A model generated the notes under the pieces. The model worked only from the letters and a program-made list of their open reading frames with translations. It ran no database searches and was not told where the DNA came from. The translations under genes were made by a program, and so were the position numbers. From an uncultured Myxococcales bacterium (GTDB lineage Bacteria; Myxococcota_A; Polyangia; Palsa-1104; JAEUJZ01), in the NCBI GenBank assembly GCA_937952145.1, contig CALFYE010000301.1, forward strand, positions 3,362 to 67,361: DNA of 64,000 nucleotides. Reading direction: 5' to 3'. Positions 14,063 through 46,895 of the stretch are shown here, piece by piece (the stretch's first letter is position 1; every line of letters starts with the position of its first letter).

Positions 14063-16948
14063 TCAGATGCGGTAGCGCAGGATGACCTGAGCGTTGAGAT
14101 TATCGAGGCGACCGCTGATCGTGCCGAAGGTGTTGCCGGTGCGTGCATCGAGGCTGGTTGGCGTACCGCCGCCGATCACGTTGTAGATCATGACCATCAG
14201 ATCGATGCGCTGACCGAGCAGCTTTTCTAGCGAGAACGAGCCCTGCAGATCGATCGTGAACTGATCGGGGAGCTTGAACTCGGACCAGGCGGTGGGGTCG
14301 TTGCTGCGCGCGCCGATGTTGGTGCCACGCGGCGAGCGATAGAGGCTGAAACTGTTGTCTTCCGGGCTCTGGAAGATGCGCCACTGCGGGGCACCGGTGC
14401 GGTACTGCATGCGCACGCTGACGTTCAGACCAAAGCCGAACGAGTAGTCGATCGCGCCCTTGAGCGTGTGGCGATAGTTGTCCGACAGCGCGCCGTAGTA
14501 GAGCGAGTTCAGGCGAGCGTTCTGACGGAACGCGCTGAAGTAGTCGCTGACCGTGCCCTCGGAAAAGGCCAGCGTGTACGAGGCGACGACGCCGAAGTTG
14601 CCAGGGTTGCCCTGCACCCAGAAGTCGAGACCGTGATAGGTGCGCTGGGCATCGTCGGGCGTGGCGGCTTCGTAGATTCGGCGACGCATGCCGTCGGCAT
14701 AGCCGATGACGCGCAGGCCGGCGGGATCCCAGATCTGATTGATCTCGTCGTTGGTCCACAGGTGATCGTACAGGCGATAGGTGTAGTCGAGGCCGACCAC
14801 CGTCTGCTCGATGACTTCGCGGCGGATGCCCAGGCCGACTTCGTCGAGCGAGGGGGGCTGGACGCTCTCGGCGAAGCGCTGACCACCGGCGCCGCCCGAC
14901 ATGTTCTGCACGACGAACTGATTGACGTCCTTGCCGGTGACCGGGTCCTTGCCCACCCAGCGCTTCAGCGTCGAGTTCTGGAATGGATTGCCCTGATCGG
15001 CGATGTAGGCGTTGCCGACATCGTTGTGACGGCCGTAGTGCGCCGACAGCAGCGTGCTGCGATCGTGGAACAGGTCGTAGACCAAGGACAGGCGCGGGCC
15101 GAGACCGATCAGCGTGCCGAGCTTTTTGCCCTCGAAGTCGTAGAGCAGGCCGGTGTCAAAGCGCATGCCGGGGACGACGGTGAGGAAGCGTTTGATGGTC
15201 CAGCGATCCTGCAGGAACAGGCCGATGTTGTAAGCCTCGGCGGTCGTCTGCCAGCCGTCGCCAGGGCGACCGCCTTGGGGCAGGCTCTGCGGGTACTCGG
15301 TGACCTGATTGCAGCTGGTGTAGGTCGAGGGATCGCTGGGGTTGCAGCCGAGTCCGGGGATGTTGTCGGTGAAGCGCAGACCGCCGGCCACGCCGACGGT
15401 GTGGCTGTAGCGCATGTACGCGAACTGCAGGCCGCCTTTGATGTTGTGCGAGCCGCTCTTGTTCGTCGTGCTGTAGAGGATCGTCGGGTCGGCTTGGATG
15501 CGGTACTTCGTCTCGTCGTTCCAGCCACCCGAGCTATTGCCGTAGGTGACGCCGTTGAATTGATCGGCGGTGCGCAGCGTGCGCGACGGTGTGATGCGAT
15601 CGAACGATCCATCTTCAGTGCGGCGCTGCGTATCGTCGAGGCTGCGTTTGGTCGTAAAGCCCGCCTGCATCTGGAACAGCCACTTCGAGGACAGCGCGCT
15701 GTCGATGAGCAGCACCAGCCACTCGCCGCCGCGGTCGACCATGCGCTCGGCATCATCGGTGACGGTGGTCGAAAGCAGGCTGTTTTGGATCTGGTTGCGG
15801 TCGATGTTGAACGACAGCGAGATACGCGTCGACGCCGTGGCCTGAAACGTCAGCTTGGCGCGCCCAAGATAGGTGTAGGTGTAGCGATAGCGATCGGTGT
15901 CCTCGTTCGTCCCGTTCCACGGGAAGGGCGGGATCGTCGCCATGGCGCGGTTGTAGTTGAACTGGAACGAGGTGAAAAACCACAGCCGGTCTTTGACGAT
16001 CGGGCCGCCAAGGTTGGCGTTGATCGAGTAGAAGTCGCGCACTGCCGGCGGTCGATCGTCGTAGAGCAGCGTGCCGTTCTGCTGCGGAAGCTGCGCGCCG
16101 TAGCGGATGTTGGAGTTGAACGCCGTCGGCTGGAAGGTGAAGCTGGCGTCGAGCGAGAACTTGTTGCCACCCGATCGGGTGACCATGTTCTGCACCAGGC
16201 CCAGGCTGTTGTATTCGGCGTCCATGGCGCCGGTGAACAAGCTGAACTGCTCGACCGCGTCGAAGTTCATCGGCGAGCTGATGCCGCCGGTGACGATGTC
16301 GCTGGTGTCTAGACCATCGACGAGGTAGCGGGTATAGCGCGACAGACCGCCGCGCACTGACGGCGAATTGCCAGGACCGACGCCAGGGGCAAGCTGCGAC
16401 ATCGCCTGCACCTGACGGAACACCGGCGTGCGCTGCACCTTGGTGTTGTCGAGTACGGTGGTGGCGACAGCGCTCTCGGGATTGAGTACCGGGTTGCGCT
16501 TTTCGACGATCTTGGTGGTCTGCGTGATCTGCCCGACCTCCAGGATGACGTCGACGGGCGCTAGCTGGCCGGCGAGCACGCTGATGCCGCGCTGTTCGAT
16601 GGGCGCGAAGCCCTCGACGCGAATGCTGAGCGTGTAGGTGCCGGGGGGCAGGCTGTCGAAGCGATAGCCGCCATCGTCCTGCGTGGTGGCCGTCTTCTGA
16701 CCGCCGAGCAGCGCACGGCTAGAGATGGTCACCGGGATGCCAGCGAGACCTTCTTTGGCGCCGCCGCCGGTACTGATCTGCACGACACCGCCGAGCCGGC
16801 CGGTGACTTCGCCGATGGCCCAAGCATCGCTGGAAAGTAGTAGGAGGGGGAGCCCGGCGAGCGATGACCCGAGCACTCCGAGGAGCGGCAGGGTGAGCCG
16901 AGTCAGACGGCGACCAGGCATGGAAAACTGCGAGCGAGGAGTCGGCAT
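14063..16948 (-). CDS. Oar-like TonB-dependent outer-membrane receptor with an N-terminal carboxypeptidase-regulatory-like domain
   Basis: There is a signal peptide. It is followed by a CarboxypepD_reg-like segment (GIPVTISS...TTQDDGGYRFDSLPPGTYTLSIRVEGF), a plug-like segment (VRGGLSRYTRYLVDGLDTSD...AEYNSLG...VTRSGGN) and about 700 aa of alternating beta-barrel-type sequence. Confidence 0.85.
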   Translation of the reverse strand: MPTPRSQFSMPGRRLTRLTLPLLGVLGSSLAGLPLLLLSSDAWAIGEVTGRLGGVVQISTGGGAKEGLAGIPVTISSRALLGGQKTATTQDDGGYRFDSLPPGTYTLSIRVEGFAPIEQRGISVLAGQLAPVDVILEVGQITQTTKIVEKRNPVLNPESAVATTVLDNTKVQRTPVFRQVQAMSQLAPGVGPGNSPSVRGGLSRYTRYLVDGLDTSDIVTGGISSPMNFDAVEQFSLFTGAMDAEYNSLGLVQNMVTRSGGNKFSLDASFTFQPTAFNSNIRYGAQLPQQNGTLLYDDRPPAVRDFYSINANLGGPIVKDRLWFFTSFQFNYNRAMATIPPFPWNGTNEDTDRYRYTYTYLGRAKLTFQATASTRISLSFNIDRNQIQNSLLSTTVTDDAERMVDRGGEWLVLLIDSALSSKWLFQMQAGFTTKRSLDDTQRRTEDGSFDRITPSRTLRTADQFNGVTYGNSSGGWNDETKYRIQADPTILYSTTNKSGSHNIKGGLQFAYMRYSHTVGVAGGLRFTDNIPGLGCNPSDPSTYTSCNQVTEYPQSLPQGGRPGDGWQTTAEAYNIGLFLQDRWTIKRFLTVVPGMRFDTGLLYDFEGKKLGTLIGLGPRLSLVYDLFHDRSTLLSAHYGRHNDVGNAYIADQGNPFQNSTLKRWVGKDPVTGKDVNQFVVQNMSGGAGGQRFAESVQPPSLDEVGLGIRREVIEQTVVGLDYTYRLYDHLWTNDEINQIWDPAGLRVIGYADGMRRRIYEAATPDDAQRTYHGLDFWVQGNPGNFGVVASYTLAFSEGTVSDYFSAFRQNARLNSLYYGALSDNYRHTLKGAIDYSFGFGLNVSVRMQYRTGAPQWRIFQSPEDNSFSLYRSPRGTNIGARSNDPTAWSEFKLPDQFTIDLQGSFSLEKLLGQRIDLMVMIYNVIGGGTPTSLDARTGNTFGTISGRLDNLNAQVILRYRI

Positions 16949-16950
16949 GG

Positions 16951-18399
16951 TTACTGCGACTTCTTTTGGAACAGGCAGTGGACGTAGATGGCGGGAATCG
17001 GCTTGCCCATGGCGTCGGTCGTGAGCACAGCGCCGGGTGCCGCCTTGATCTCGGCGGCGCTACACAGCGGTCGCGGAGCGATGGTGTCGGATTCAAGGCG
17101 CGTGCAGCTGGCAGCGAGTTTTTTCTTGTCGAAGTAACGCAGGCGACACACCGGCGAGAAGTCGGGGTCGGCGGGCGTGCTGGCAAAGACCGCCATGATG
17201 TCGGCGGTGCGCGTCTTTTTCGGATCGGTGCTGTCTTTGAGCTCGATGGTCGCGCTGGGGATGGGGTTTGACGTGGCCGCGACCGGCACCTCGTCACTGG
17301 CCACGAAGAGCTCGTTGAGCTTCGGGCAGACCGGAATCGGCGCCAGGCAGCGACCGCTGCTGCAGATCTCGTTGGCGGCAGCGTTGCAGTCGCTGGGCAT
17401 GGTGCAGCTCTTGCCGGTCGGAACACGCAGGATGTCGGCGCAGGCGGCCGGATCGGTGGTCACTGGCAGGGTGCCTCCGTCGAGATATCCACCCAGCAGG
17501 CCACGCAGCCAGTGCTGCGAGGGGAACTGGAAGCTGGCATCGGGATCGCCGGGGAAGCGGGGATACTTGGCGCTGCTGCCAGTGACGAATGGGCACGAGT
17601 CGCCGGCGATCGGCGTCTTCATGAGGACGGTGGCCACGCTCATCATCGGCCAGTCCTTGAAGGTCACCTTGTCGCTGCGTAGCTCGTCGCGGCTGGGGAA
17701 GCGGAAGTCGAAGTTGAAGGGGGCGCCGTCGGGGAAGGTCTTCTGTTCGCGGCTCCAGCCGGCGCGCTCGAGCAGCGAGCGCTCGCTCTTGATGTCGTTG
17801 CAGCCCATGCGGCCGCGGATCGAGTCGCGCAGCGTGACGGGCACGACCATCTGGAAGGGGCGATAGGTGCCGACAGAGGTGGGCTCGGCGGAGCTGCCGG
17901 CGCGCGTGGGATCGGTGCCGTAGGCGACGACGGGGTACTGGCGATCGGTCAGGTAGTTATTGGCCTGCGCGCTGTAGTTGCTGGGGCTAATCGCCTCGGC
18001 CCGGCCTTCGCCCCCGTCGCAGCCGCTGATCTCGTAGACGGTGGGCGGTAGGGCCTTGGTCGCGTCGGCGGCGTTGCTCACGTCAAGCTGACTGCTGCTT
18101 AGCCCGCCGAGATACCACCAAGTCTGTCCATCGATGCCGCCGCTGCCACCACCAAAGCCGCGGCGCGGGGCGAGGCAGGGATACAGGCTGTTGGGCCAGG
18201 TGCTCTTGGCCGGGCCACCAAACGCTGTATCAAAGCCGCTGGGATCGATAGTGCCCTGATAGGGGTCGGGCGGAACGAGGTCGCTGCAGCCCACCGCAAG
18301 CGCCGCCAGAGCGGAGAGCGCGGGGACCACCCGACCACAGGCGTTGACAGTGACGGAAAGCAGGTGAGATCGGCACGCCGAAGCACGCAGCATAGGCAT
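16951..18399 (-). CDS. Lipoprotein of unknown function
   Basis: Lipobox LAALAVGCSD. GC3-rich coding pattern. The stop lies 2 nt before the TonB-dependent receptor start codon. I recognise no motif. Confidence 0.6.
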   Translation of the reverse strand: MPMLRASACRSHLLSVTVNACGRVVPALSALAALAVGCSDLVPPDPYQGTIDPSGFDTAFGGPAKSTWPNSLYPCLAPRRGFGGGSGGIDGQTWWYLGGLSSSQLDVSNAADATKALPPTVYEISGCDGGEGRAEAISPSNYSAQANNYLTDRQYPVVAYGTDPTRAGSSAEPTSVGTYRPFQMVVPVTLRDSIRGRMGCNDIKSERSLLERAGWSREQKTFPDGAPFNFDFRFPSRDELRSDKVTFKDWPMMSVATVLMKTPIAGDSCPFVTGSSAKYPRFPGDPDASFQFPSQHWLRGLLGGYLDGGTLPVTTDPAACADILRVPTGKSCTMPSDCNAAANEICSSGRCLAPIPVCPKLNELFVASDEVPVAATSNPIPSATIELKDSTDPKKTRTADIMAVFASTPADPDFSPVCRLRYFDKKKLAASCTRLESDTIAPRPLCSAAEIKAAPGAVLTTDAMGKPIPAIYVHCLFQKKSQ

Positions 18400-18496
18400 G
18401 CGCCGCGTTTACCACGCCGACGCGGGGTCGCTCAACGCATTTACGAGCTTGCCGGGATGAGGGCTGAAGGTCAGCTGGAGCCGGCGGGGGGCAGAG

Positions 18497-19366
18497 CTAT
18501 AGATCGTCGCAGGGGGTGCCGAGGCGCTCGCCGGCGTAGACGCCGAGCTCGGTGTAGATCATCGCCAGGTTCTCATCGACGGGCACGGGCAGCAGAGTGC
18601 TGGTCTTGCCCTTCTGAATCCAGACCGGCTCCTTCTTGCCCAGGACCATGCGCATGCTGCCCGTCGCCGTCGAGAAGACGTCCCCCTCGGAGTCCGAAAC
18701 GACGTTGGTCATCTTTTGCAGCTTGAGGTTGCCTTTGGGGCCGACGAAGAGGCGGAAGTTGCGGCTCTCGCTGCGGTCGGCCTGGTGGCGATCGACGTAG
18801 CCGCGATCGACGTAGTAGTAGACGCCGGCGGAGTTGCGGGCGAGGGCATAGGCCTGCCACTTCCGCGGGCTGCCTTCAAACTGGGCGGCTGCCAGCAGAG
18901 GTCGGGCGGTGGCGGGGGCGACGACCGTAAGTGGCGTGGTGGTCTTGCCGCAGGTGACGGTGTACTTGCCGTCCTGCATGGCAAGCTCGCTGCGCTGGGT
19001 GAAGCCGATGTAGTAGCGAGGATCGACGAAGGTGGTGTTGAAGCGCTCTTTGCCGACGGCGCCGCCGCCCTGGATGGGGACGGCGAAGAAGCGCTTGCCA
19101 TCGCCGTAGAACAGCGAGTCGTCGTTGCGCACGAAGGGCTCGACCGCGATGTAGTGCGACTTGCCGTCGGTGAGGAGCAGCAGCTTGTCGCGGGCCGGCT
19201 TCGGTGCCGCCGGTGCGGGGCCATCCGCAAGGGCCGGAGTGACGGTCGGGGCGGTTCGCCAGCCCGCCTGCCAGCCGGGGAAAAACGCGCAAGCCGCCAT
19301 GAGGGCCCAGCCCGCGCCCCGGTAGGCTTGGCGGGTCGATCGGGACAAAGAGAGCTTTTGCAGCAT
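18497..19366 (-). CDS. Secreted protein of unknown function
   Basis: The N-terminus has a hydrophobic segment (GWALMAACAFFPGW) and a Pro/Ala linker. The sequence is non-repetitive and globular-looking. No motif recognised. Confidence 0.6.
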   Translation of the reverse strand: MLQKLSLSRSTRQAYRGAGWALMAACAFFPGWQAGWRTAPTVTPALADGPAPAAPKPARDKLLLLTDGKSHYIAVEPFVRNDDSLFYGDGKRFFAVPIQGGGAVGKERFNTTFVDPRYYIGFTQRSELAMQDGKYTVTCGKTTTPLTVVAPATARPLLAAAQFEGSPRKWQAYALARNSAGVYYYVDRGYVDRHQADRSESRNFRLFVGPKGNLKLQKMTNVVSDSEGDVFSTATGSMRMVLGKKEPVWIQKGKTSTLLPVPVDENLAMIYTELGVYAGERLGTPCDDL

Positions 19367-19490: not shown

Positions 19491-20564
19491 CTACGAGGCG
19501 GTGGCGCTCTGTAAGGCGGCGAGGGCGGCGCCACTCTGCACGCTGGGGCGCAGCCAGTGCGCGATCGCGGTCGTAATCGCCGATAGCAGTACTTGGCCCG
19601 TCGCTGACAGCTCGCCAGGGAGGCTCGGGCTGGTCGCGCCGGAGGGAGCAGGGTTTTCGGCCAAAAGGAGCAGGAGTTCGCGCAGTGTGCGCTGGCCCCA
19701 AGGCCGGCCGGCGAGGTCCTGCGCATAGAGCCAGGTCAGCGCGGCCGTCAGGTCGGGGGCCGCCTCGGGACGATCGAGCCAGGTAAGCAGCGTCGAGCGC
19801 AGCTGACTGGCAACGCGCAGCGGCTGGGCCCGGCCAAGCTCGTTGGCCAGCACCTCGCCACGCAGGTCGAGGGCAAAGTCGAGGAGCGACAGCTTAAGCT
19901 CGATGTGCTCGGCGGTCCGCGCAGGATCGGTCAGCGTGGCTGCCAGGCGGGCAACTAGCTCATCGACGGCGCCCTCGGCAAACTCGGCGGCTCGGCGCTG
20001 CATCTGCCGCTCTAGCTCATCGGTGACGACGGAGGCGACGCCGGAAGCGACAGCCCCGACGGCGGCGGTTCCTCGCTGCACGGCCTGGGTGGCCAGCCGC
20101 CCCAGCATGCCCAGGTTGCGGCCGGCGTTGGGGTCGGACAGCGTCGAGCGGATGCGACGGGTGTAGTCGACCAACGTCCCCAGCATGAGCTCGCGGTTGA
20201 GGCGGCGAAACGGCGGACGCGAGAGCAGGGCCACAAGCAGCGTGCGCTCGGGGACGTAGGGCGTGCGAGCAAGCTCTTGCAACAGCAGCACGGCGTCGGC
20301 TGACAACAGGCTGCGCAGGGTCGGCACGCGGCGCAGCGTGCTCTGGGCCAGCGTCAGTCCCTGGGTCAGGCGGACATCAGCTTGCGGATCGCGCAGGATG
20401 GCCAGCGCGACGGCCCGACCTAGCTCGGCACACAGGGCAGGCGGCAAGAGCGTCTGCAGCGGGCGCCCCATGCAGCCATCGAGCAAGACCTCGGCCAGCC
20501 GGTGTGCCGCGTCCTTTGGTGCGGGTGGCGGCGCAGAGGCCTCGGTGGGACTCACGCTACTCAC
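19491..20564 (-). CDS. Ala/Leu-rich, predicted helical protein of unknown function (no signal peptide seen)
   Basis: Track ORF. Its start overlaps the stop of the giant repeat gene by 8 nt (20557-20564), which implies co-translation. No motif recognised. Confidence 0.55.
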   Translation of the reverse strand: MSSVSPTEASAPPPAPKDAAHRLAEVLLDGCMGRPLQTLLPPALCAELGRAVALAILRDPQADVRLTQGLTLAQSTLRRVPTLRSLLSADAVLLLQELARTPYVPERTLLVALLSRPPFRRLNRELMLGTLVDYTRRIRSTLSDPNAGRNLGMLGRLATQAVQRGTAAVGAVASGVASVVTDELERQMQRRAAEFAEGAVDELVARLAATLTDPARTAEHIELKLSLLDFALDLRGEVLANELGRAQPLRVASQLRSTLLTWLDRPEAAPDLTAALTWLYAQDLAGRPWGQRTLRELLLLLAENPAPSGATSPSLPGELSATGQVLLSAITTAIAHWLRPSVQSGAALAALQSATAS

Positions 20565-23500
20565 TGGCCATGCGCAGCGTCGCGCCGTACCAGGCCGACT
20601 GCGTGCCGACGGGTTCTAGCGGGACGACGATGCCCCAGAGCAAGCGCAGCGTGCGGTGGATGCCCTCGCGCGAGTACCCGACCAAGCCGTAGAGCACGCT
20701 CCATTCGAGATCCTGTGGACGCGGACGGCCGAAGTTGAACAGCGGCCAGAAGTGAACGCTCCATGCGCCGGCGTACTCGCCCGTGCCCTTGTGGACGTAG
20801 GTGTTGAGTACGATCGTCGAGTGTCCGCGATCGGTACGCCAGTGCGCGCCGAAGGGGAAGAGCACGCTGAGGGCCAGACCCGGCCGGCGGACGCCGATGT
20901 AAAGCGGGGCCAGGACCGTCGTCGAACGCCCGGTCTCCTTCGAGCTGAAGTGCCAGAAGAAGGGGAAGACCACGCGCTCGCGGCTACCGTCGCCGCCGTT
21001 GCGGATCCAGGTCAGAAGCGGTAGCAGCAGGAGCGAGCGGTTGTTGTGCTCGTCGCGGCGATAGCCAAAGAAGGGCAGGGCCACGACCGTCGTCGTCGCC
21101 GGCCGCTTCAGGTAATAGAACAGCGGGAAGAGGACCGTGGTCTGGCGATCGGGCTGCTTGAAGTGCCACAAGAGCGGGAACTGCACGAACGACACACTCT
21201 TTGCCGTGGTGCCGGGCAGGGCGGCCCGCTTGAAGTAGGTCAAGAGCGGGGGCAGAAGCCAGGTCGTGCTGTCCTGTAGCTCGTCGCGGTGACGGACCAC
21301 AAACGGCAGGACGACACCGACGGCAGTGGTGCGGCTGCGGTAGTAGTTGTTGATGTCGAGCGCAAACGGCGCCAGCAGCGTGGTGCGCGAAGCGAGTGTG
21401 CGGTAGTGCCAGAACAGCGGCGTCACCATCGTCAGGCTGCGCTCTGGCGAAGAGGCGCGGTAGAAGAGCGGCAGCACAAAGGTCGTGCGGTCCTGCTTGT
21501 TGATGTCGAGACCGTCGTAAAACAGCGGGAACAGGGCCTGCGTCTTCTGGTTCGCGTCCCGTCGTACGTACAGCGGGCCCAGGTAGAAGCGGAAGCCGTT
21601 GGCCGCGCTGTTGAAGCCAAACAGCGGAGTCACTACCCAGGTGCTCGACAGTGGCTTGTGCGACGCATAGACCAGCGGGAAGATGCCCATGCTGAAGCCG
21701 CCGTCGCCTTCGTTGCGCCCGTACACCAGCGGTAGGAACCCGCCGTACGTCGCGCGCTCTTTGTGGCCGAAAAACAGCGGGCCGAGCAGGGTGAACGAGC
21801 GGTCGGTCGTCGCATCGCGCGAGTCGTAGAAGAACGGCAGCACGAAGGTGGCGCGCGCCGTCCCGCGGCGGGTGGCGAAGAACAGCGGGAACACACCGAA
21901 GTCACTGCGCGTGCGCTCGACATCGGCGTAGAACGTCAGGAAGGCGCTGCGGACGCGATCCTTGACGTAGTCGTGGTGATAGAAGCCAAGCGGCGTCGCC
22001 AGCAGGCTCTGGCTGACGCTACGGCCGTAGCCGAAGAGCGGGAGGACACCGAAGGCCAGCTCGCCCTTCTGCTCGTCTTTGTGGTGGAAGAAGGGCAGGA
22101 CCACGGTCGTGCTGCGACCGGGGCCGCGTACCGAATAGAACAGCGGCAGCACGGTATGCGACGAGAGCTCGCCACGCTTGACGCCGTAGTACAGCCACAG
22201 CACGGAACGGAACGAGGTGTTCTCGTCGCGGATGTCGGCGTAGACCGGGAAAAGAACGAGGGCGCGGCGCCCCGGGCTGCAGTGGAAGTAGTACAGCGGG
22301 AAGAGGGCGCGCGAGATCGACTGCCCTGGTTGCCCCGGATTGCCCACCGTCTCGACGTACGGACCGATGAGCAGAGTGCGGCGCTCGGCGGTGCGGCTGT
22401 AGCCAAAGCCCGGGCCCACGACCAGCGTGCGCTCCGGCGAGCGATGGGTATAGAGCAGCGGCAGAATGCCAAACGTCGTCGAGGTCACCGTGGACGGCGC
22501 CGCGGCATCGGCTGGCGCGGTACCGGTGGTCACTTGCGGGGTAAGTGCTGCCAGCGAGCCGGGGGCGACCTGGCGGCGGACCTGATGGTAGAACATCGGT
22601 CCGGCGAGGAAAGACGAGGTCTCGACGTTGCCGCTCTTGCGTCGCCACTCGGCGAACAGCGGCAGGAGCACGGTGTAGCTGTCGCTGGCGCTCCGCTTCC
22701 AGAAGAACAGGGGAACGACACCGCCGTGCACCGCCGCGCGCGTATCGCCAAAGAACTGTGGGCAGCGGCGCTGCCAGTACAGCGGACCGGCGATCAGGCG
22801 CTCGAAGCCTGGCTCGCTGTGGTGATAGAACAGCGGCAGCAGCGCTTGGGTGCGGTTTGCTCCGTGGCGGCTGACGAAGAGCAGCGGGAACAAGCCCGCG
22901 TCATAGCCGGCCTCCGGGCCCTTGGTGGTGTAGCGGTAGAAGATCGGGCCGACGTTGATGTGGTAGCGGCCGGCGGCGCGGTCCGCGAAGTACATCACGA
23001 CCGGCGGCACCAGCAGGAAGTGTGGCTTGTTGCCGGTGGCGAACGAGAACAGCGGTAACACGCCGCCTCCGCCAGCCGCTGGCGCGCTGGCCGTCGCTGG
23101 GGACGACCAGCCATAGACCGGGCCGACGAAACCCATGCGCAGCTGCGGCGAGCGATGGAACGCCGCAAGGAGCGGCGGCACGATGTACGTTCCGGCGCGC
23201 GCTACGTCGTTTTCGAAGCGGAGAAACAGGGGCAGCAGGCCTTCGCTGCGCCCGCTGTCGTCGCGCGAGAAGAAGTACAGGCCGGCATAACCCGCTGAGT
23301 GCCCAGTCTGTTTGTTGCGCCACCAGGCCGCGACCGGCGGAATGACCGTCACCTCGGATGCCGGGGTCTGTCGCCGCAGGACCAGCGGAGCCAGCCACAG
23401 CGTCGTGGTCTCGGCCGCTGGCCCGTCGTGATACTGCCCACCGAGCGGCGAGATGAAGAAGTGACTCTTGTCTTCCCACCGACGGTAGAAGAACAGCGGA

Positions 23501-24582
23501 ATGAGCGTGGCGTAGCGCGCTCCGGTCTCGCTGTTGTGTCCGCTGAAAAACAGCGGCAACACAGAGGTCGTGCTCTCGGGACCTGTGCGGCGATACCAGA
23601 CCAGGGGGAAGTAGCCAGCGCGGACTTTCTCTTCCGGGTTCTCGTCGCTCTTGGCTTCGCGATAGTAGTAGCCAAGGCCCAGGAAGAGGCCGAGCGAGGT
23701 CTTGGGTCCCTGGTGATAGAACATCAGGGCCGGCAGGAACAGGGTGTCGCTGGTCTTGGCTGCGTGATCCTTGCGCTCAAAAAATAGGAGCGGTGGGATC
23801 AGCGTGGTTTCCGTCGGACCCCGTCGCTGTGAGTAGAAGAACGGCATGATGCCGATCGCGCGGCCGCCGTCTTCCCCCTTGCCGTAGTCGGAGTAGAAGA
23901 ACAACGGCCACAGCCGGTGGGTCTTTTCCGTCGGCGTACGTCGGTACTGATAGGTGGGAAAGACCCAGGTATCGCGGGTCTTTTCGACGTGATTCTGGTG
24001 GTCGACGAAGAGCGGCGCGACTATGCGGGTGCTGCGCTGCGGTCGCCACAGGCTGTAGTAGAACGGCAGGACGAGACGAAAGCCGATCGGCCCGGGCTGG
24101 TGGAAGTAGACAATGCCCGAGGTCATGCGCTGCACCGACTTGCAGACGTGACGGGCGCAGACACTCTGGGCCGGGCACTGCGAGTCGTTGTCGCACTCGG
24201 AGGCCTTGGCTTTCTTCGCGTCCTTGTCGGTGGTGCTCTCGCTTTCGTCGTCGTCGCCGTCGAGCGCTCCGGGCGGAGGTGTGGCGAAGGGGACCGCTGG
24301 CGCCTCGCCTACCGGTGCGGCCGGATCGGCGCTTGGGCTAGCCGGAGGAGGCGCAGCCTGGGCAAACAGCGGCAGCGGGGGCAGCCCGGCTGGCTTAGCT
24401 TGCGCAGGGGCAGTCTCACCCGCTCCGGCAAGGGCGGTCCGAAACGGCGAAAAGCCCACGGGTGGCGCAGCCTGCGCGTCACCAGAGGGCCCACCGAGAA
24501 GGGCTAGACCAATCAGTCCAGCCGACAGCACAGCGACGGAAGAACGCCGTCGCAGGCTGCGTGCTACGGTGTCATCTTCCAC
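20557..24582 (-). CDS. Giant exported repeat protein (1341 aa) built from about 55-58 degenerate 17-19-aa 'PLF[YF]' units; family unknown
   Basis: GTG start at 24582 with GGAG 8 nt upstream. The N-terminus is signal-peptide-like (RRRSSVAVLSAGLIGLALLGG...AQA). It is followed by a Pro/Ala/Asp-rich linker, a Cys motif (CDNDSQCPAQSVCARHVC), and then hand-counted repeats such as VLPLFYSVRGPGRSTTV / VLPFFHHKDEQKGELAFG / VLPLFGYGRSVSQSLLA. Confidence 0.8.
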   Translation of the reverse strand: MEDDTVARSLRRRSSVAVLSAGLIGLALLGGPSGDAQAAPPVGFSPFRTALAGAGETAPAQAKPAGLPPLPLFAQAAPPPASPSADPAAPVGEAPAVPFATPPPGALDGDDDESESTTDKDAKKAKASECDNDSQCPAQSVCARHVCKSVQRMTSGIVYFHQPGPIGFRLVLPFYYSLWRPQRSTRIVAPLFVDHQNHVEKTRDTWVFPTYQYRRTPTEKTHRLWPLFFYSDYGKGEDGGRAIGIMPFFYSQRRGPTETTLIPPLLFFERKDHAAKTSDTLFLPALMFYHQGPKTSLGLFLGLGYYYREAKSDENPEEKVRAGYFPLVWYRRTGPESTTSVLPLFFSGHNSETGARYATLIPLFFYRRWEDKSHFFISPLGGQYHDGPAAETTTLWLAPLVLRRQTPASEVTVIPPVAAWWRNKQTGHSAGYAGLYFFSRDDSGRSEGLLPLFLRFENDVARAGTYIVPPLLAAFHRSPQLRMGFVGPVYGWSSPATASAPAAGGGGVLPLFSFATGNKPHFLLVPPVVMYFADRAAGRYHINVGPIFYRYTTKGPEAGYDAGLFPLLFVSRHGANRTQALLPLFYHHSEPGFERLIAGPLYWQRRCPQFFGDTRAAVHGGVVPLFFWKRSASDSYTVLLPLFAEWRRKSGNVETSSFLAGPMFYHQVRRQVAPGSLAALTPQVTTGTAPADAAAPSTVTSTTFGILPLLYTHRSPERTLVVGPGFGYSRTAERRTLLIGPYVETVGNPGQPGQSISRALFPLYYFHCSPGRRALVLFPVYADIRDENTSFRSVLWLYYGVKRGELSSHTVLPLFYSVRGPGRSTTVVLPFFHHKDEQKGELAFGVLPLFGYGRSVSQSLLATPLGFYHHDYVKDRVRSAFLTFYADVERTRSDFGVFPLFFATRRGTARATFVLPFFYDSRDATTDRSFTLLGPLFFGHKERATYGGFLPLVYGRNEGDGGFSMGIFPLVYASHKPLSSTWVVTPLFGFNSAANGFRFYLGPLYVRRDANQKTQALFPLFYDGLDINKQDRTTFVLPLFYRASSPERSLTMVTPLFWHYRTLASRTTLLAPFALDINNYYRSRTTAVGVVLPFVVRHRDELQDSTTWLLPPLLTYFKRAALPGTTAKSVSFVQFPLLWHFKQPDRQTTVLFPLFYYLKRPATTTVVALPFFGYRRDEHNNRSLLLLPLLTWIRNGGDGSRERVVFPFFWHFSSKETGRSTTVLAPLYIGVRRPGLALSVLFPFGAHWRTDRGHSTIVLNTYVHKGTGEYAGAWSVHFWPLFNFGRPRPQDLEWSVLYGLVGYSREGIHRTLRLLWGIVVPLEPVGTQSAWYGATLRMASE

Positions 24583-25208
24583 TCACCGTTCTCCAGCACC
24601 AAGTGGATGTCATCGGTCTGCACGTTGTCGCCCTTGGTGCGGCGAACCTTCAGCACCGCTAGACGCTGCTCGCCCTGCTTCTGGAACGACGTCGACAGGA
24701 ACGAGAACTGCACGCCTTCGAGGTCTTTCTGTGCCTGCTTGAACTGGTCGGGGGATTGCGCAAGCTGCTGCCCGACCATGCCCTGATACATGAGCGCATA
24801 ACAGTCGATGGCCTTGCCCGGCTCGCCCTTGAGCATTGAGGTGCGCCAGCGATCAAACGTCTTCTCTGGCGTCGAGAACTCGGTGCGCGCCGGCGGCAGC
24901 TGAAACACGATCTGCTTCACCTTGTCGCGCGGCAGCTCCAGCTTCTGGCCGTTGGTCGTCTCAAGCACGATGAGGCCGTCGAAATAGTGCGTCAGCTTGC
25001 CCATCACCTGCGTGTTGTCTGCGAGCGTGACGACCTCGGCCTGCGCCGGCCCATACTGCAGGATCAGGCTCAAGGCAGCGACGGACCAAGCGATCGAGCG
25101 GACGAACCGGCGAGAGGCAAACGTGCATTGCGAGGGTCGCGGGAAAGCCACTTGGACGACAGAGCGGCCCTGCCGCGCAGCCTGAGCAGAGCACTTGTCT
25201 GGGGACAT
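24564..25208 (-). CDS. Secreted protein of unknown function (possibly an NTF2-like C-terminal half)
   Basis: AAGGAG lies 8 nt upstream of the ATG at 25208. Signal peptide: SIAWSVAALSLILQYGPAQA. The stop overlaps the GTG start of the giant repeat gene by 19 nt. Confidence 0.6.
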   Translation of the reverse strand: MSPDKCSAQAARQGRSVVQVAFPRPSQCTFASRRFVRSIAWSVAALSLILQYGPAQAEVVTLADNTQVMGKLTHYFDGLIVLETTNGQKLELPRDKVKQIVFQLPPARTEFSTPEKTFDRWRTSMLKGEPGKAIDCYALMYQGMVGQQLAQSPDQFKQAQKDLEGVQFSFLSTSFQKQGEQRLAVLKVRRTKGDNVQTDDIHLVLENGEWKMTP

Positions 25209-25313: not shown

Positions 25314-27452
25314 TTAGCGGGGAGAGCCGGTCGGGTCGCTGCGCCAGGCGGCGAGGGCTGCGCGGACTTTTTCTGCCCGGGGATCGGCGATGGCTTCGCG
25401 CAGCCGCAGGGCCTGCTCGGCGTACTGGATGGCTTCCTCGCGGCGGCTCAGGGCATCGAGCGCGAGCGCACGGTTCCACGCCGAGTTGGCTTCCCCGCGC
25501 CGATCTGAGACGGTGCGGGCGATCGAGATGTGTTGGTCATAGAACGAAAGGGCTCGATCGGCCTGTCCGGCCAAGCGGTAGGCCAGGCCTAGGTTGCCCA
25601 GGGCACGGCCCTCGGCTCGTCGATCTCCAAGCCGCTGGGCGACGGTGAGATCGCGCTCAAACGTTGCGATGGCCGGAGCGGTGAGCCCTGCCTCCAACTC
25701 GGCGATCCCTAGGCTGGACAAAAGCGCGCTCTCGGCTCGTAGGTCGCCGAGTCCCTGGGCCAGGGCAAGGCTCGCTTTGAAGTGCTCGATGGCCTGTGCG
25801 GCTTCGCCGGCATCGAGCAGGCTGTGACCCAAGCTGGCGGCCGCCCTCATAACGAGCCCGCTCTCTCCGGCGGTCTTGGCCAGCTGTAGACACTGGGCAT
25901 AGCTCTGGTTGGCTTGGCTGGACGGTCCTAGCTCGCGCTGTATCTGGCCGAGCAGGAGCAGCAAGCCAGCCTCGGCCACAGGGTCAGCCAGGCGGCGCGA
26001 CGCGGCGAGCGCGCCTTCGATCCAGCGGCTTCGCTGACGGGGTGCCGCGCGCTGGGCAAGCAAGCCGCCGCTAGCTAGGGCTAGCCCTGCATATCCTCGC
26101 AGGCGAGGGGCCTCAGGAGCCGAGCTGTCGGGTGGCGCGCTCAGCACCCAGGCTTGCGCCGCTTCGAAGTGGGCTCGCTGGCTGTCGAAAAGAGCAAGTG
26201 CCTCGGCCAGAGCCTCCGTGCCTTGACGGGATCGCGTCTCGGCGCTCGCCAGCACCCCGGTTAGGTGAGGGACGTGCAGGTCGCGCACCAGCCGCTCGAT
26301 CCCGGGCTCGCTCTGCGTCTGCGCGTACTGCCGTACCAGCTCGTGCATGCGGTACTGGCCGTTGCGAGCATCGAATTCCAACAGCCCGCTTCGTCCTAGT
26401 CGGCGCAGCACATCGGGTAAGGGCGAGGCGTGTGGCGGCAGGGCGGCAATAGCCGATAGGGTCGCGGCATCGTAGGGCAGGGGCAGCACGGCCATCCGGT
26501 TTAGGAGCTGCCGACCCCATGGATCGATGCTGCGATAGGCCACGGCAACCACCGCCATGAGGTCGTGTGCGCTGCCCTCTCTTGGGCGCAGGTTTTCGAG
26601 GCGGGCCCGCTCGTTCTCCAGCTTGGCCAGGACGTCCCCGGGCGTGAGGCGGGGGTCTTCGCGCAGCAATAGCCCCATAAGTCCCAGCGCCAGCGGAGCT
26701 TGTACACAGCGGTGCGAGAGCTCGCTGGCTTGACTGCTCGTCAGGCGGGGACACAGGCTGCGTAGGAGCTGGGATGCATCGGAGAGCGGCAGGCCATCGA
26801 GCTCCATCGCGTAGCTGCTGGCCACGCCGATCTGGGTGAGCGGGACGCGGTTGCGGCTGGTGGCCAGGAGGGCGCAGCCGGGTGGCGGCAGCAGTGCCCG
26901 TAAGGCCGCGCCGTCACGAATGTCGTCGGCAATAATCAAGGCGCGCTGACCGGACAGCTTGCTGCGATAGAGCGAAAGCAGTGCCTCAGGCTCGCTCGGT
27001 AGGCGGGGCAGGGGGCCGACGAGGAAGCGCAGCACTCGCTCCACGGCCTGTTCTGGGCGGAGCGGCTGCTCCGTCGAGCCACGCAGATCAAGCCAGATCT
27101 GCAGCGGTAGCACGGCCTGTAGATCGTGGGCCACCTTGCAACACAGCTCGCTCTTGCCGACCCCTGCCAGGCCCCGTGCAGAAGAGACCAGCGCGACCGG
27201 ACCTGTCGCGGGCCGCAGCGTACGCGCTAGGCGCTCGATCTCGGAACTACGGCCGATAAAGCTGGGGCTGGGATCGCGGATCAGGCGTGTGACGAACGGC
27301 CGTGGGGCGCTGGAACCGGCTCGCTCTTGGCCCAGATCATCTCCGCGCTCGCCGGCCAGCGATCTGTCAAGTCCGCTTCCTGGGCCCGGTGCTCCGTCCT
27401 CGCCGCGATCGGTCCGCCCAGTCCGATCGCGCTGCCGCTGCGTCCCCGCCAC
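25314..27452 (-). CDS. STAND-type (NB-ARC-like) NTPase with C-terminal TPR repeats
   Basis: Walker A GLAGVGKSELC, a Walker B-like ALIIADDI, and a C-terminal array of TPR units (GRALGNLGLAYRLAGQADRALSFYDQHISIAR, AESALLSSLGIAELEAG...). The N-terminal roughly 70 aa are low-complexity and charged. Confidence 0.8.
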   Translation of the reverse strand: MAGTQRQRDRTGRTDRGEDGAPGPGSGLDRSLAGERGDDLGQERAGSSAPRPFVTRLIRDPSPSFIGRSSEIERLARTLRPATGPVALVSSARGLAGVGKSELCCKVAHDLQAVLPLQIWLDLRGSTEQPLRPEQAVERVLRFLVGPLPRLPSEPEALLSLYRSKLSGQRALIIADDIRDGAALRALLPPPGCALLATSRNRVPLTQIGVASSYAMELDGLPLSDASQLLRSLCPRLTSSQASELSHRCVQAPLALGLMGLLLREDPRLTPGDVLAKLENERARLENLRPREGSAHDLMAVVAVAYRSIDPWGRQLLNRMAVLPLPYDAATLSAIAALPPHASPLPDVLRRLGRSGLLEFDARNGQYRMHELVRQYAQTQSEPGIERLVRDLHVPHLTGVLASAETRSRQGTEALAEALALFDSQRAHFEAAQAWVLSAPPDSSAPEAPRLRGYAGLALASGGLLAQRAAPRQRSRWIEGALAASRRLADPVAEAGLLLLLGQIQRELGPSSQANQSYAQCLQLAKTAGESGLVMRAAASLGHSLLDAGEAAQAIEHFKASLALAQGLGDLRAESALLSSLGIAELEAGLTAPAIATFERDLTVAQRLGDRRAEGRALGNLGLAYRLAGQADRALSFYDQHISIARTVSDRRGEANSAWNRALALDALSRREEAIQYAEQALRLREAIADPRAEKVRAALAAWRSDPTGSPR

Positions 27453-44480: not shown

Positions 44481-46895
44481 TCAGCTTGCCGCTGGGCCGA
44501 GGGGCGTCGCGTTCCCGCGGGGCAGCACGACGGAAAGCATCGGGCCCTCCCCGAAGGCATGGTCGATCCGCACACGAAACCTCAGTGGCTGCGGCGGCTC
44601 CCGGCCATCGGGCGGGGTTCGCGACGGCGCGCTCACTAGGAGCGCGAGCGGGACCGCATCGCCTGGCTGAAGCAGAAGGGTCGGTTCCGGCGCGAGCAGG
44701 TTTGCCTCCGCGGGCAGATCCACCGCCGACAGCCGCAGCCAGTACGCCCGCCCGGCATCGGGGGCGTTGCGAACTGCGATGGTCAGTTCACCGAGGGTCG
44801 TGTCCCCCCCCAGCGGGTTTTTGACGTGGACTGTCGCGGTCAGCCCGGGTTCCTTTTCGGGGCGAGGCGGGAGGACTGGACTCCGACTGCCATCGCCGGC
44901 AAATCGGGCGAGCAAGCGTCCGTCATCCCATCGGTACAGCTTGTCCTCGCGTCGCCAGATCCACCCCGTGCTGCTGCAATGCAGTTGGAACAGCAGCGCC
45001 CCCTGCTTTCGATCGAAGAACAGGACTTCCCGATGTCGCATCGCAGTCCACAAATAGTCTCCGTCGCGTGTGGTGCGGGTTTGGTACTTGCCGAGAGGTA
45101 GGCTGAGCGGCTTCGTCGGTTCCGCCCCGGTCTGGACGTCCCAGAATCGCAGCCCCTCGGGGCCCCACACCCACGCTCCCAGAGTCTCTCCGTGCTGCTG
45201 AAAAGCCAGGGTCGCGGCCGCGTCTTTGCTGAGCGGGAAGGCCCGGTGTTTTTCGCCGCTCTGCACATCCCAGAACACCAGCTCATCGTTGTGGACCGCG
45301 GCCAGCTGTCGGCCATCTGGGCTGAACGCTAGCTCGGAAGGAATGTTCCCTGGCGTGGGCAAGGTTCGCAGCACCTGGCCGCTGCCACAGTCCCAAATCC
45401 GCACAGTGTGATCGGCTGAGCAGGTGGCCAACTGCAAGCTATCAGGGGAAAACGCAATACAGCCGATATAGGCAGAGTGACCGTAAAAAGTCTGCACCCG
45501 CTTGCCCGTTGCGACATCCCATAATTCCACAAAATTTATAGATCCGGGTTCATCATCGGAATAGGTGGCAATCAGCTGACTGTTTCTGCTCCACTCGCAA
45601 ATTAAAGTGTAGCCGATCAGCGAAAGTGAATACCGGAGCTGACGTTCCGCAATATCCCAGACCGAGAGGTTATTGTGACTATTTGTCCCTGTGGTGATGA
45701 GCATTTTCCCGTCAGGGCTGAACTTGGTCTTGAATATTGTTCCGCTGTCTGTTTGGAAAATCCCAATCTCGGCCCATGCCGACAGATCAAAAAGCCGAAC
45801 CCGATCCGTACCGCTAGAAACCGCGAGCAGGGTGCCATCTGCAGAGATATCGACAGCGAAAGCATGGGGCGACATTTCGATGCGTCTTGCCTCGATCCCA
45901 GAGGCGACATCCATCAAACAAAGGGTCTGATCACGGGCAGCGGTTGCTAAAAACTTACCATCCGGGCTGAAGGCCATCGCCGACACCGTATTGCTGTGGC
46001 GGTACCACCTGCCGCGCTCCTGGCCTGCCGCGATATCCCATAGCCGGATCCCATAATCACGAGAATACTGGTCGGGCATGGTAGCTATCGCTAACAATTG
46101 TCCATCTGGACTAAATGTTGGAATGTCAATGTTCTCAGAATCTTCAATTTGAAAATAAATTTGCTCGGAAGAGATATTGAGTAGATCGACTTTGCCCCCA
46201 TTAAGGGCAATAGACAGGGACTCGCTGTTTGGGGCCCAGGAGATATTTATTGCAGAGTATTCTGGATTGTATGATGAAATTAGCTCGTTTCCGGTTTCTA
46301 TCTCAAATACTCTTGCGCTTCCGTCTGTGATAAATGATAAATATGAACTGTTCGGGCTAAATGACAGATGCTCAATGTGTGATTTCCCCGACAATGGAAA
46401 AAACAATATATCGATTTGGTTAGCAATGTCAGATATGTGAATTCCGACGTTTTTTTCGACATATGCAAGTCGGCCGGTGGCGCTTAGGGCTAGCAGCCCC
46501 AGACTCCCACGGCTCGGGAGGGGCTGGGTGAGTCGCTCGCCGCTCGCGAACTCCCACAAGAGGAGTGCCGCGTCGAACGGGGCAGTGGCTAAGCGCTGCG
46601 GCTCGTATCCCAGAGGGGCACCAGCGACGGAAACGCTGTCATACGAATGTCGCTGAAGCTCCCGGCCGGTTGCGGCATCCCAGATGCGGATCGGGAATTC
46701 CTGTCGGCTGTCCGAGTGATAAGGGGCGCCGATGGTCAGCAGACTGCGGCCGTCCCGGCTCCAGGCAAGCGCGGCCGGGTAGTCGGGCAGGTTGAAGGAG
46801 CGTTCGTCGAGGACACTCAGATCCTCTCCTTCGGGAACCAGCCCGCGTGGAGTCGTCGTCGCTGGGAAGAAGGCGGGGAGCTTGCGGGGGGGCAT
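44481..46895 (-). CDS. WD40-repeat protein (804 aa) with a C-terminal beta-sandwich-like extension
   Basis: Many WD40 blades are present: FSPDGKFLATAARDQTLCLMDVASG, FSPDGKMLITTG...LSVWDI, FSPDSLQLATCSADHTVRIWD, FSPDGRQLAAVHNDELVFWDV. The ORF is continuous across a pronounced low-GC stretch (see findings). Confidence 0.85.
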   Translation of the reverse strand: MPPRKLPAFFPATTTPRGLVPEGEDLSVLDERSFNLPDYPAALAWSRDGRSLLTIGAPYHSDSRQEFPIRIWDAATGRELQRHSYDSVSVAGAPLGYEPQRLATAPFDAALLLWEFASGERLTQPLPSRGSLGLLALSATGRLAYVEKNVGIHISDIANQIDILFFPLSGKSHIEHLSFSPNSSYLSFITDGSARVFEIETGNELISSYNPEYSAINISWAPNSESLSIALNGGKVDLLNISSEQIYFQIEDSENIDIPTFSPDGQLLAIATMPDQYSRDYGIRLWDIAAGQERGRWYRHSNTVSAMAFSPDGKFLATAARDQTLCLMDVASGIEARRIEMSPHAFAVDISADGTLLAVSSGTDRVRLFDLSAWAEIGIFQTDSGTIFKTKFSPDGKMLITTGTNSHNNLSVWDIAERQLRYSLSLIGYTLICEWSRNSQLIATYSDDEPGSINFVELWDVATGKRVQTFYGHSAYIGCIAFSPDSLQLATCSADHTVRIWDCGSGQVLRTLPTPGNIPSELAFSPDGRQLAAVHNDELVFWDVQSGEKHRAFPLSKDAAATLAFQQHGETLGAWVWGPEGLRFWDVQTGAEPTKPLSLPLGKYQTRTTRDGDYLWTAMRHREVLFFDRKQGALLFQLHCSSTGWIWRREDKLYRWDDGRLLARFAGDGSRSPVLPPRPEKEPGLTATVHVKNPLGGDTTLGELTIAVRNAPDAGRAYWLRLSAVDLPAEANLLAPEPTLLLQPGDAVPLALLVSAPSRTPPDGREPPQPLRFRVRIDHAFGEGPMLSVVLPRGNATPLGPAAS

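Follow-up and report, generated by a model that had tools for sequence, protein, structure and literature searches.

A giant β-hairpin repeat protein, predicted to be exported and hydrophobic along one edge, and its linked partner gene in an uncultured Myxococcales bacterium

The 64,000-nucleotide stretch of DNA analyzed here (referred to as the window; positions 3,362 to 67,361 of contig CALFYE010000301.1, assembly GCA_937952145.1, from an uncultured Myxococcales bacterium) carries on its minus strand, at 20557..24582, an open reading frame (ORF) for a protein of 1341 residues, called the giant below, of which about 1,170 residues are made up of 17–18-residue "hPLF[FYW]" units. Structure prediction and covariation indicate that these units are β-hairpins strung into one very long antiparallel ribbon, which is hydrophobic along one of its edges. 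In the model favored here, to which a probability of roughly 40% is given, the giant would be a Sec-exported fibrous protein of the cell envelope, serving as a fibre or scaffold in which the hydrophobic seam is buried by self-association or coiling, with the product of a tightly linked gene acting as its chaperone, adaptor, or cap.

The frame exists as claimed in a first-pass annotation of the DNA and opens with a GTG start codon, just 5' of which stands GGAG. The signal peptide, Pro/Ala/Asp linker, and Cys knot that the annotation had proposed for the N-terminus are likewise borne out by the translation. Residues 1–38 (24469..24582, on the minus strand as are all features of the giant), read by eye, comprise an RRR n-region, a 16-residue hydrophobic core, and AQA followed by A, with a homologue consensus of AxA, which reads as a Sec signal peptide, the giant hence being a predicted exported protein. 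This is followed by a low-complexity Pro/Ala/Asp-rich linker (residues 39–127, 24202..24468), which is weakly conserved among homologues, and by a four-Cys knot (residues 128–150, 24133..24201) of the form C-x6-C-x6-C-x4-C, the four Cys columns of which are at least 90% conserved among homologues; in Pfam the knot gives insignificant hints only (EB, DUF7107, and Squash, E 0.14–1). The disulfide knot and the signal peptide together argue for a compartment outside the cytoplasm. At the other end of the protein a C-terminal tail of 19 residues (20557..20616 with the stop codon) ends in ...RMASE, without a terminal aromatic residue, and is predicted to be disordered, with a predicted local distance difference test (pLDDT) score below 50 at residues 1175–1191 of the structural model.

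The repeat itself is real, in that the part of the protein after residue 150 contains the motif P[LF][FLVYW]x 39 times, with a modal spacing of 17, as compared with 4.2 ± 1.9 times (maximum 11) in 2,000 shuffles. A hidden Markov model (HMM) of the unit recovers 37 copies in the giant, and the 125 strands assigned by AlphaFold2 correspond to about 62 hairpin units, so that the 55–58 units counted by hand in the first-pass annotation captured a genuine array while slightly underestimating its size. The family-wide consensus of the unit reads V-L-F-P-L-F-[FYW]-x-x-R-D...S-T-T-V-L. With the strands mapped on the sequence, h-P-L is the connection between hairpins (the Pro arc), F-[FYW]-x-x-R-x is the outward strand, which is followed by a tight polar turn, often with Pro or Gly, and x-S-T-T-V-L is the return strand. 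In alignments of the homologues the Pro and Gly of individual arcs vary hardly or not at all, which argues that the number and the order of the hairpins are fixed. At the nucleotide level no tandem repeat was detected in the gene by Tandem Repeats Finder, and the units are therefore old and diverged, as had been proposed, rather than the product of recent slippage; the plus-strand footprint [GT]A[AC]CAGCGG that had been noted is present, in 11 exact copies (24 for CAGCGG) and not in the dozens first reported. A search of the giant for a super-repeat gave weak autocorrelation peaks at 54 and 73 residues, BLOSUM similarities that are highest at lags of 3, 4, and 6 hairpins, and, in profile-based comparison, a faint even/odd hairpin effect in the N-terminal (N) lobe only.

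Prediction by AlphaFold2 for residues 151–1341, from 83 sequences, yielded a mean pLDDT of 84.6 and a predicted template modeling (pTM) score of 0.33, as against 94.8 and 0.59 for the N-terminal half alone (residues 151–680). The 125 predicted strands are 5–6 residues long each and are linked by turns of mostly 2–4 residues. By the AlphaFold2 strand map and covariation, 55 antiparallel strands form a continuous β-meander in the N lobe (residues 155–671, 22570..24120), and by the strand map and conservation another 70 make up the C-terminal (C) lobe (residues 698–1322, 20617..22491). The two are separated by an Ala/Pro/Thr-rich hinge (residues 672–697, 22492..22569) with low pLDDT and low conservation: apart from the last 17 residues, pLDDT falls below 50 only at residues 676–694 (526–544 of the model), and the hinge is the least conserved block of the repeat region N-terminal of residue 1110. 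The most conserved segment is the end of the C lobe, at residues ~1271–1310, where the homologue consensus is ...GLxGYERxGRNRxLxLL.... The predicted protein can be read as a pair of fairly rigid bodies, lobes of 55 and 70 strands, with a hinge between them; the pTM of 0.59 for one lobe and of 0.33 for both is consistent with this. As a β-sheet rises by about 4.8 Å per strand, the contour lengths of the modeled lobes would be about 26 and 34 nm.

The pairing of these strands is reflected in the covariation among 94 colinear orthologues (effective number of sequences, Neff, 80) aligned to the family HMM, expressed as mutual information with average product correction and averaged over ~50 hairpins. 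In-register antiparallel positions covary more than those off by one, with a difference of +0.030 (95% confidence interval (CI) 0.018–0.042) within the hairpin and of +0.031 (95% CI 0.019–0.043) from one hairpin to the next, across the Pro arc. At hairpin lags of 2–19 the difference is indistinguishable from zero, the marginal value at lag 20 being about as chance would give over 20 tests, and a long-range scan for coil contacts returned a few cells of z = 4–4.7 at lags 7 and 10, which were treated as no signal, the background differing between the lobes. Because covariation is confined to adjacent strands, each strand pairs with both of its neighbors in sequence, so that in the resulting model each unit is a β-hairpin and the whole repeat region one continuous antiparallel meander. 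The idea of one β-solenoid coil per unit, which was the preferred interpretation of the first-pass annotation, has to be abandoned, given two strands per unit, antiparallel covariation within and between adjacent units, and the lack of a β-helix among the 50 best Foldseek matches listed in either PDB search; the long β-hairpin array that it had named as an alternative is supported by the strand map and the covariation. A multi-finned intramolecular solenoid, with hairpins stacked n per turn in separate sheets, was considered as well and is ruled out by the null covariation at lags 2–19.

The hairpins line up chemically as well as topologically. With few exceptions, each hydrophobic loop along the 125 strands is followed by a polar one and vice versa (mean Kyte–Doolittle (KD) hydropathy +1.84 versus -1.64). 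In the family-wide profile of the unit, both faces of the sheet show a fall in hydropathy, from about KD +3 at the arc to about -2.7 near the polar turn. Going across the ribbon, an aliphatic arc (L/V/P/L) gives way to F/Y/W, then to Y/H/R, and then to a strong Arg position, while Thr ladders occupy the middle and the sheet outside the seam is polar, rich in Thr, Arg, and Asp. The hydrophobic edge is made of the invariant Pro arcs and two rows of residues, hydrophobic on both faces and flanked by the Arg row, and it runs as a seam unbroken over both lobes. The amphipathic axis of the ribbon thus lies across its width and does not run from face to face, and to our knowledge no described repeat shows amphipathicity of this edge-wise kind. 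Since a seam of ~60 nm that is hydrophobic on both faces could not stay exposed to water, it would have to be buried.

Structural comparison was based on the 50 best Foldseek matches in each of two PDB searches and in a search of BFVD. The PDB matches include no global match to the giant, with query-normalized template modeling (TM) scores of at most 0.16 and root mean square deviations (rmsd) of usually 30–80 Å; these rmsd values are internally inconsistent as a guide to the shape of the ribbon and were not used for that purpose. The best target-normalized TM score, 0.42, belongs to the small single-layer TCP10 sheet of CPAP. PDB matches with significant E-values, all of a generic likeness, include the ApoB100 β-belt, teneurin YD shells, the IFT-A, DDB1, and LRP6 propellers, TcB-TcC, engineered OspA, and CPAP TCP10. 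BFVD yielded generic matches only, among them viral MORN-repeat and phage tail-fibre proteins, with similarly low TM scores, so that neither database gave a global match (TM ≤ 0.2). Nearly all of the best 50 in each PDB search are antiparallel β-rich proteins, and none of the three lists of 50 best matches contains a parallel β-helix or an outer-membrane barrel.

The presence of IFT-A, DDB1, and LRP6 in this list, together with the all-β character of a protein that carries a signal peptide, could be taken to suggest a chain of β-propellers or a giant outer-membrane β-barrel with unusually diverged repeats. This is a very improbable explanation. Propeller blades have four strands and ~40–50 residues and close into rings, whereas the period of the giant is 17–18 residues, not ~40; the TM scores to the propeller targets do not exceed 0.15, no propeller family of Pfam matches, although the genuine WD40 protein encoded elsewhere in the window is detected, and the covariation reports nearest-neighbor pairing only, with no signal of blade or barrel closure. 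Outer-membrane proteins span the membrane with strands of ~9 residues or more of alternating hydrophobicity and end in an aromatic β-signal, while strands of 5–6 residues, such as those of the giant, cannot span the outer membrane, only two arc-adjacent rows are hydrophobic, and the C-terminus lacks the aromatic signal. On these grounds the outer-membrane barrel is unlikely, and the giant barrel named in the first-pass annotation as a further alternative is not supported, the whole-protein pTM of 0.33 speaking against it as well.

The teneurin YD shells and TcB-TcC, which are among the best matches (E 1e-9 to 1e-3, probability up to 1.0), share with the giant a hairpin unit of ~20 residues repeated dozens of times in one very long antiparallel sheet, and the giant is similar in length to Rhs proteins. 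A model can accordingly be drawn in which the sheet spirals, as in teneurins, TcB-TcC, and Rhs toxins, into a closed cocoon around a cargo or toxin. Such a shell is nevertheless hard to credit, as the TM scores stay at or below 0.15 with rmsd values above 50 Å, and as the giant has no YD motif, plug, core, or toxin and no RHS_repeat, YD, or Rhs-core match in Pfam (searched to E 10) or NCBIfam. The strands of YD shells are about 8–10 residues long, longer than those of the giant; its C-terminus is the most conserved part and not a polymorphic toxin; type VI secretion, VgrG, PAAR, or immunity genes are absent from its context; and the low whole-protein pTM, the mid-protein hinge, and the absence of a closed-shell signal in the covariation likewise speak against a closed body.

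Among single-layer sheets, MORN repeats, the central sheet of OspA, and the G-box (TCP10) of CPAP share with the giant tandem β-hairpins that make up an elongated antiparallel sheet, the faces of which are polar and rich in Thr and charged residues (target-normalized TM 0.42 for TCP10 and 0.20 for engineered OspA). The giant differs from all three in having one hydrophobic edge over its full length, in its ~125 strands, which is far above the known examples, and in being a bacterial protein with a predicted export signal. The MORN repeat has a 23-residue YxGxWxxGxxxGxG consensus, whereas the giant has neither this Gly-rich pattern nor a match to the MORN family of Pfam (PF02493), and its 17–18-residue unit carries the invariant Pro arc. 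The β-flower/Tubby clan folds have short (~5-residue) antiparallel strands in hairpin petals with edge aromatics and Arg/Lys nearby (PMC10584680). Short-strand hairpins of this sort, as in the β-flower/Tubby clan (PF21784-6) and the choline-binding repeats (CW_binding_1), are shared by the giant, but those folds are small closed barrels or solenoids of three hairpins per turn, and the covariation of the giant has no closure every 4–6 hairpins; neither PF21784-6 nor PF01473 matched it in Pfam. Tandem hairpins that form long antiparallel sheets are, then, already known from MORN, YD, OspA-type, and ApoB-type proteins, and what appears to be undescribed is the family itself, with its invariant Pro-arc unit, edge-wise amphipathicity, ~125-strand size, partner, and cross-phylum breadth.

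At the sequence level, the repeat region has no match in Pfam (Kelch, WD40, TPR, YD/Rhs, MORN, pentapeptide, or other), in agreement with the exclusions made in the first-pass annotation, and the negative is meaningful because the same scan readily detects the WD40 protein at 44481–46895. Searches of PDB sequences with the giant and with the family profile found nothing. The only curated model that recognizes the repeat is NF047486 of NCBIfam (LA_1737_Cterm, from Leptospira), which matches three stretches of the giant, best at residues 1136–1185, with E = 5e-14 and a score of 52.5 bits, where its cutoff is 60 bits; a relative from the same superfamily, P0259, passes that cutoff with 64 bits. 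Judged from sequence, the giant therefore appears related to the LA_1737 family, significantly so even below the cutoff, and the earlier statement that it could not be placed in any known repeat family holds for Pfam and not for NCBIfam. The LA_1737_Cterm model has about 158 positions, which is roughly 9 hairpins only, the family is itself uncharacterized, and no partner gene is known for it, unlike for the giant of the Myxococcota. The two outcomes that the first-pass annotation had named as fatal to its proposal, a match to a characterized family or a low-confidence structure without homologues, thus contrast with what was found, namely no characterized family, high pLDDT, and abundant homologues.

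In a collection of 5.8 billion proteins the giant has 98 homologues of 830–1800 residues, most of them of 1,100–1,400 residues and several with 100% query coverage; all are annotated as hypothetical, and none has a Pfam domain. Where their source is named, they come from metagenome-assembled genomes (MAGs) of Myxococcota or Polyangia, with a further member (P0086) from a Verrucomicrobiota MAG. In three MAGs with MFD isolate names the gene is split into 2–4 overlapping frames (L022 7531-10871, L038 7446-11392, and L048 7405-11404), which are either frameshift errors of assembly or pseudogenes. When 1.84 billion cluster representatives were searched with a profile, 2,365 clusters passed E <= 1e-3 and 705 of them E <= 1e-30, and the former number, with clusters drawn at 50% identity, is a lower bound for the size of the superfamily. 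Many of these clusters have 1,000–2,100 residues and profile matches in several stretches, and Pfam domains are lacking from the distant members too. The same superfamily includes a Spirochaetota MAG protein (P0349) as well as CYCD_11130 (P0403) from the Bacteroidota strain Tenuifilaceae bacterium CYCD, to which BLASTP aligns the giant with E = 4e-27 over 800 residues, the C-terminal cap included; the motif of the Bacteroidota is hFP[IL][YF]W. This protein (L068 6001-9225, AP027304.1) has a very regular super-repeat of four hairpins (~75 residues), which is faint in the Myxococcota protein, with the hairpin classes LFPIYW, VFPIVW..SFT, IxPLxSFG..DG, and LTPLFWxFKN. A distant, paralogue-like member (P0094, E = 1e-13 to the giant) lies without a partner gene on an 11.1-Mb contig (L003 8001-12035), as a divergent neighbor of yceD-rpmF-plsX-fabD-fabG-acpP-fabF.

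The partner gene (24564..25208, minus strand) lies immediately upstream of the giant and encodes a 214-residue putatively exported protein with a signal peptide ending in AQA, before EVV, and a mature part of about 160 residues. Its stop overlaps the GTG start of the giant by 19 nt, and overlaps of 4–19 nt are seen wherever gene calls exist, so the two genes, judged by their arrangement, are probably translationally coupled. The partner has 610 homologues with very strong alignment conservation, e.g. at FKLPPPRAEFSTPEKTF, DCYALMYQG, and the C-terminal VLENGEWKMTP, and it is the more conserved of the two, with 81% identity where the giant has 58% and 46% where the giant has 27%. Among 63 loci found through the partner in one genome per GTDB species, all of them MAGs and nearly all labeled Myxococcota, Polyangia, or "delta proteobacterium", a homologue of the giant follows directly on the same strand in 61, the remaining two being cut off by the end of the contig. 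The partner has no significant family match in Pfam, NCBIfam, or PDB sequences; its C-terminal domain gives weak NTF2-like lipoprotein hints only (DUF4878, E 0.17; WKL lipoprotein, E 0.0027). Its N-terminal β domain has a non-significant NCBIfam hint to LB_137_fam (E = 0.027), and as the only NCBIfam hints for both genes of the pair are thus to Leptospira-specific families, this may be either a coincidence or a sign of a distant parallel module in Leptospira. In many other loci the flanks are housekeeping genes (glyA, accD/folC, purD), and neither PADLOC nor PHROG gave a match for the giant or the partner, the pair being core chromosomal and neither mobile nor related to defence. It is a two-gene core module particular to this Myxococcota lineage, set within a far wider single-gene superfamily, in which the partner is missing beside the Bacteroidota relatives and beside one distant Myxococcota paralogue.

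In the fibre or scaffold model introduced at the outset, the flexible Pro/Ala linker and the disulfide knot would precede the ~62 hairpins, which would form a continuous meander split by the hinge. The seam would serve as an assembly interface, buried as the ribbon associates with itself or coils, and its burial would stiffen the whole into a periplasmic or envelope-attached fibre or scaffold. The partner, dedicated to the giant, would work in the periplasm as a chaperone, adaptor, or cap and act on either the seam or the conserved C-terminal cap. What the data show is the gene pair, the export signals read by inspection, the hairpin topology, the chemistry of the seam, and the distribution of the family; the location, the oligomeric state, the role of the partner, and the scaffold function are what we infer. 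Several points count against it. The AlphaFold2 output used consists of strand assignments and confidence scores and covers neither the tertiary path of the ribbon nor the burial of the seam, and the covariation analysis borrowed its anchors from the AlphaFold2 strand map, which makes the two kinds of evidence less than fully independent. As no sorting signal besides the Sec peptide was found in the giant, periplasm, outer membrane, and surface are indistinguishable as its destination, and since the Bacteroidota relatives have no partner, the latter is not essential to the fold. The literature searched contains no description of the LA_1737 family, of hairpin repeats in Myxococcota or Leptospira, or of the present family, and no experiment on any of its members, and a hydrophobic seam of ~60 nm is equally suited to contact with membranes or lipids.

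That last point leads to a different model, in which the seam dips into one periplasm-facing leaflet, the giant being a peripheral fence or track, or in which it offers a hydrophobic rail for the transit of lipids or lipoproteins between the membranes, loaded or capped by the partner; the rail would work like the bridge-type lipid transporters (AsmA/TamB, Lpt) while being unrelated to them. The depth profile of the seam is in keeping with this, as aliphatic, aromatic, Arg, and polar is the order found at membrane interfaces, and so are the continuity of the seam over both lobes, lobe contours of ~26–34 nm, which would be on the scale of the width of the periplasm, and the lipoprotein-type hints in the C-terminal domain of the partner. 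A lipid-wrapping structure also tops the Foldseek matches by E-value (1.2e-10), namely the β-belt of ApoB100, a very long amphipathic antiparallel β-ribbon like that of the giant; its TM scores of 0.03–0.11, however, denote a generic meander likeness only, the two have no sequence relation, and ApoB is hydrophobic on one face, whereas the giant is so along its edge. Membrane or lipid contact is altogether rather unlikely to be the function of the giant, considering that the hydrophobic band, of about two rows plus the arc, is by our own estimate roughly 1 nm deep and would be too shallow for a groove, that AsmA, TamB, and Lpt families gave no match in Pfam or NCBIfam, nor YhdP in Pfam, that those proteins have an inner-membrane anchor and the giant a predicted cleavable signal peptide, and that there is no conserved neighborhood of lipid-metabolism genes.

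The same fold might also be placed elsewhere, as a secreted surface fibre or adhesin of an extracellular matrix or S-layer-like coat. The giant has the makings of one, as a long, repetitive, β-rich protein with a predicted export signal, a flexible N-terminal linker, and a disulfide knot, and MORN-like and phage tail-fibre proteins do appear among its weak BFVD matches. Typical adhesins evolve fast, though, while length and individual arcs are strictly conserved here, and neither a signal of the type I, V, or IX secretion system (T1SS, T5SS, T9SS), PEP-CTERM, or MYXO-CTERM type nor secretion-system genes nearby were found, which makes a surface location and role quite unlikely compared with an envelope fibre or scaffold.

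A broader proposal, offered tentatively and with the odds somewhat against it, is that the hPLF[FYW] hairpin defines an undescribed superfamily of exported proteins of 1,000–2,000 residues in Myxococcota, Bacteroidota, Spirochaetota, and Verrucomicrobiota that would build a new element of the cell envelope, namely a ribbon of tens of nm with a hydrophobic/aromatic/Arg seam, zipping into a fibre or acting as a track, fence, or lipid rail that rides on or bridges membranes, with a dedicated partner in Myxococcota and no counterpart among solved structures. If this were true, a large unstudied class of giant envelope proteins would exist in at least three diderm phyla, with relatives in tractable organisms such as Leptospira and Tenuifilaceae bacterium CYCD (a 3.9-Mb genome record). 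It could represent a new way to build long rigid periplasmic or surface elements, or a new device for contacting membranes or lipids. The family, which Pfam does not cover, would add an entry to the domain databases, and the strictly linked partner would provide an immediate genetic and biochemical handle.

The other neighbors in the window (ORFs of 357, 289, 482, 961, and 712 residues) are conserved in the closest MAGs only and were rejected as parts of the system for that reason. The first of them, an Ala/Leu-rich ORF of 357 residues (19491-20564, minus strand), starts with an 8-nt overlap with the stop of the giant, has no family match and, by eye, no signal peptide, and is kept in the three closest MAG loci (64–78% identity); it is probably outside the conserved module. 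Beyond it, at 14063-19366 (minus strand), lies a run of envelope genes found in the closest MAG (L005) only, with a 961-residue outer-membrane protein resembling TonB-dependent receptors (CarboxypepD_reg, Plug, and OMP_b-brl_4), a Cys-rich protein of 482 residues with a lipoprotein-like N-terminus, and a putatively exported protein of 289 residues, the last two without a Pfam or NCBIfam match. Directly upstream of the partner, a 712-residue STAND-type NTPase with NB-ARC/NACHT hints and C-terminal TPRs is encoded at 25314-27452 (minus strand) and is conserved in L005 only. The guanine–cytosine (GC) content of the window is high, at about 0.61–0.69, and is lower (0.61 versus ~0.66 elsewhere) in the 44–48-kb stretch with the 804-residue multi-WD40 protein (44481-46895, minus strand).

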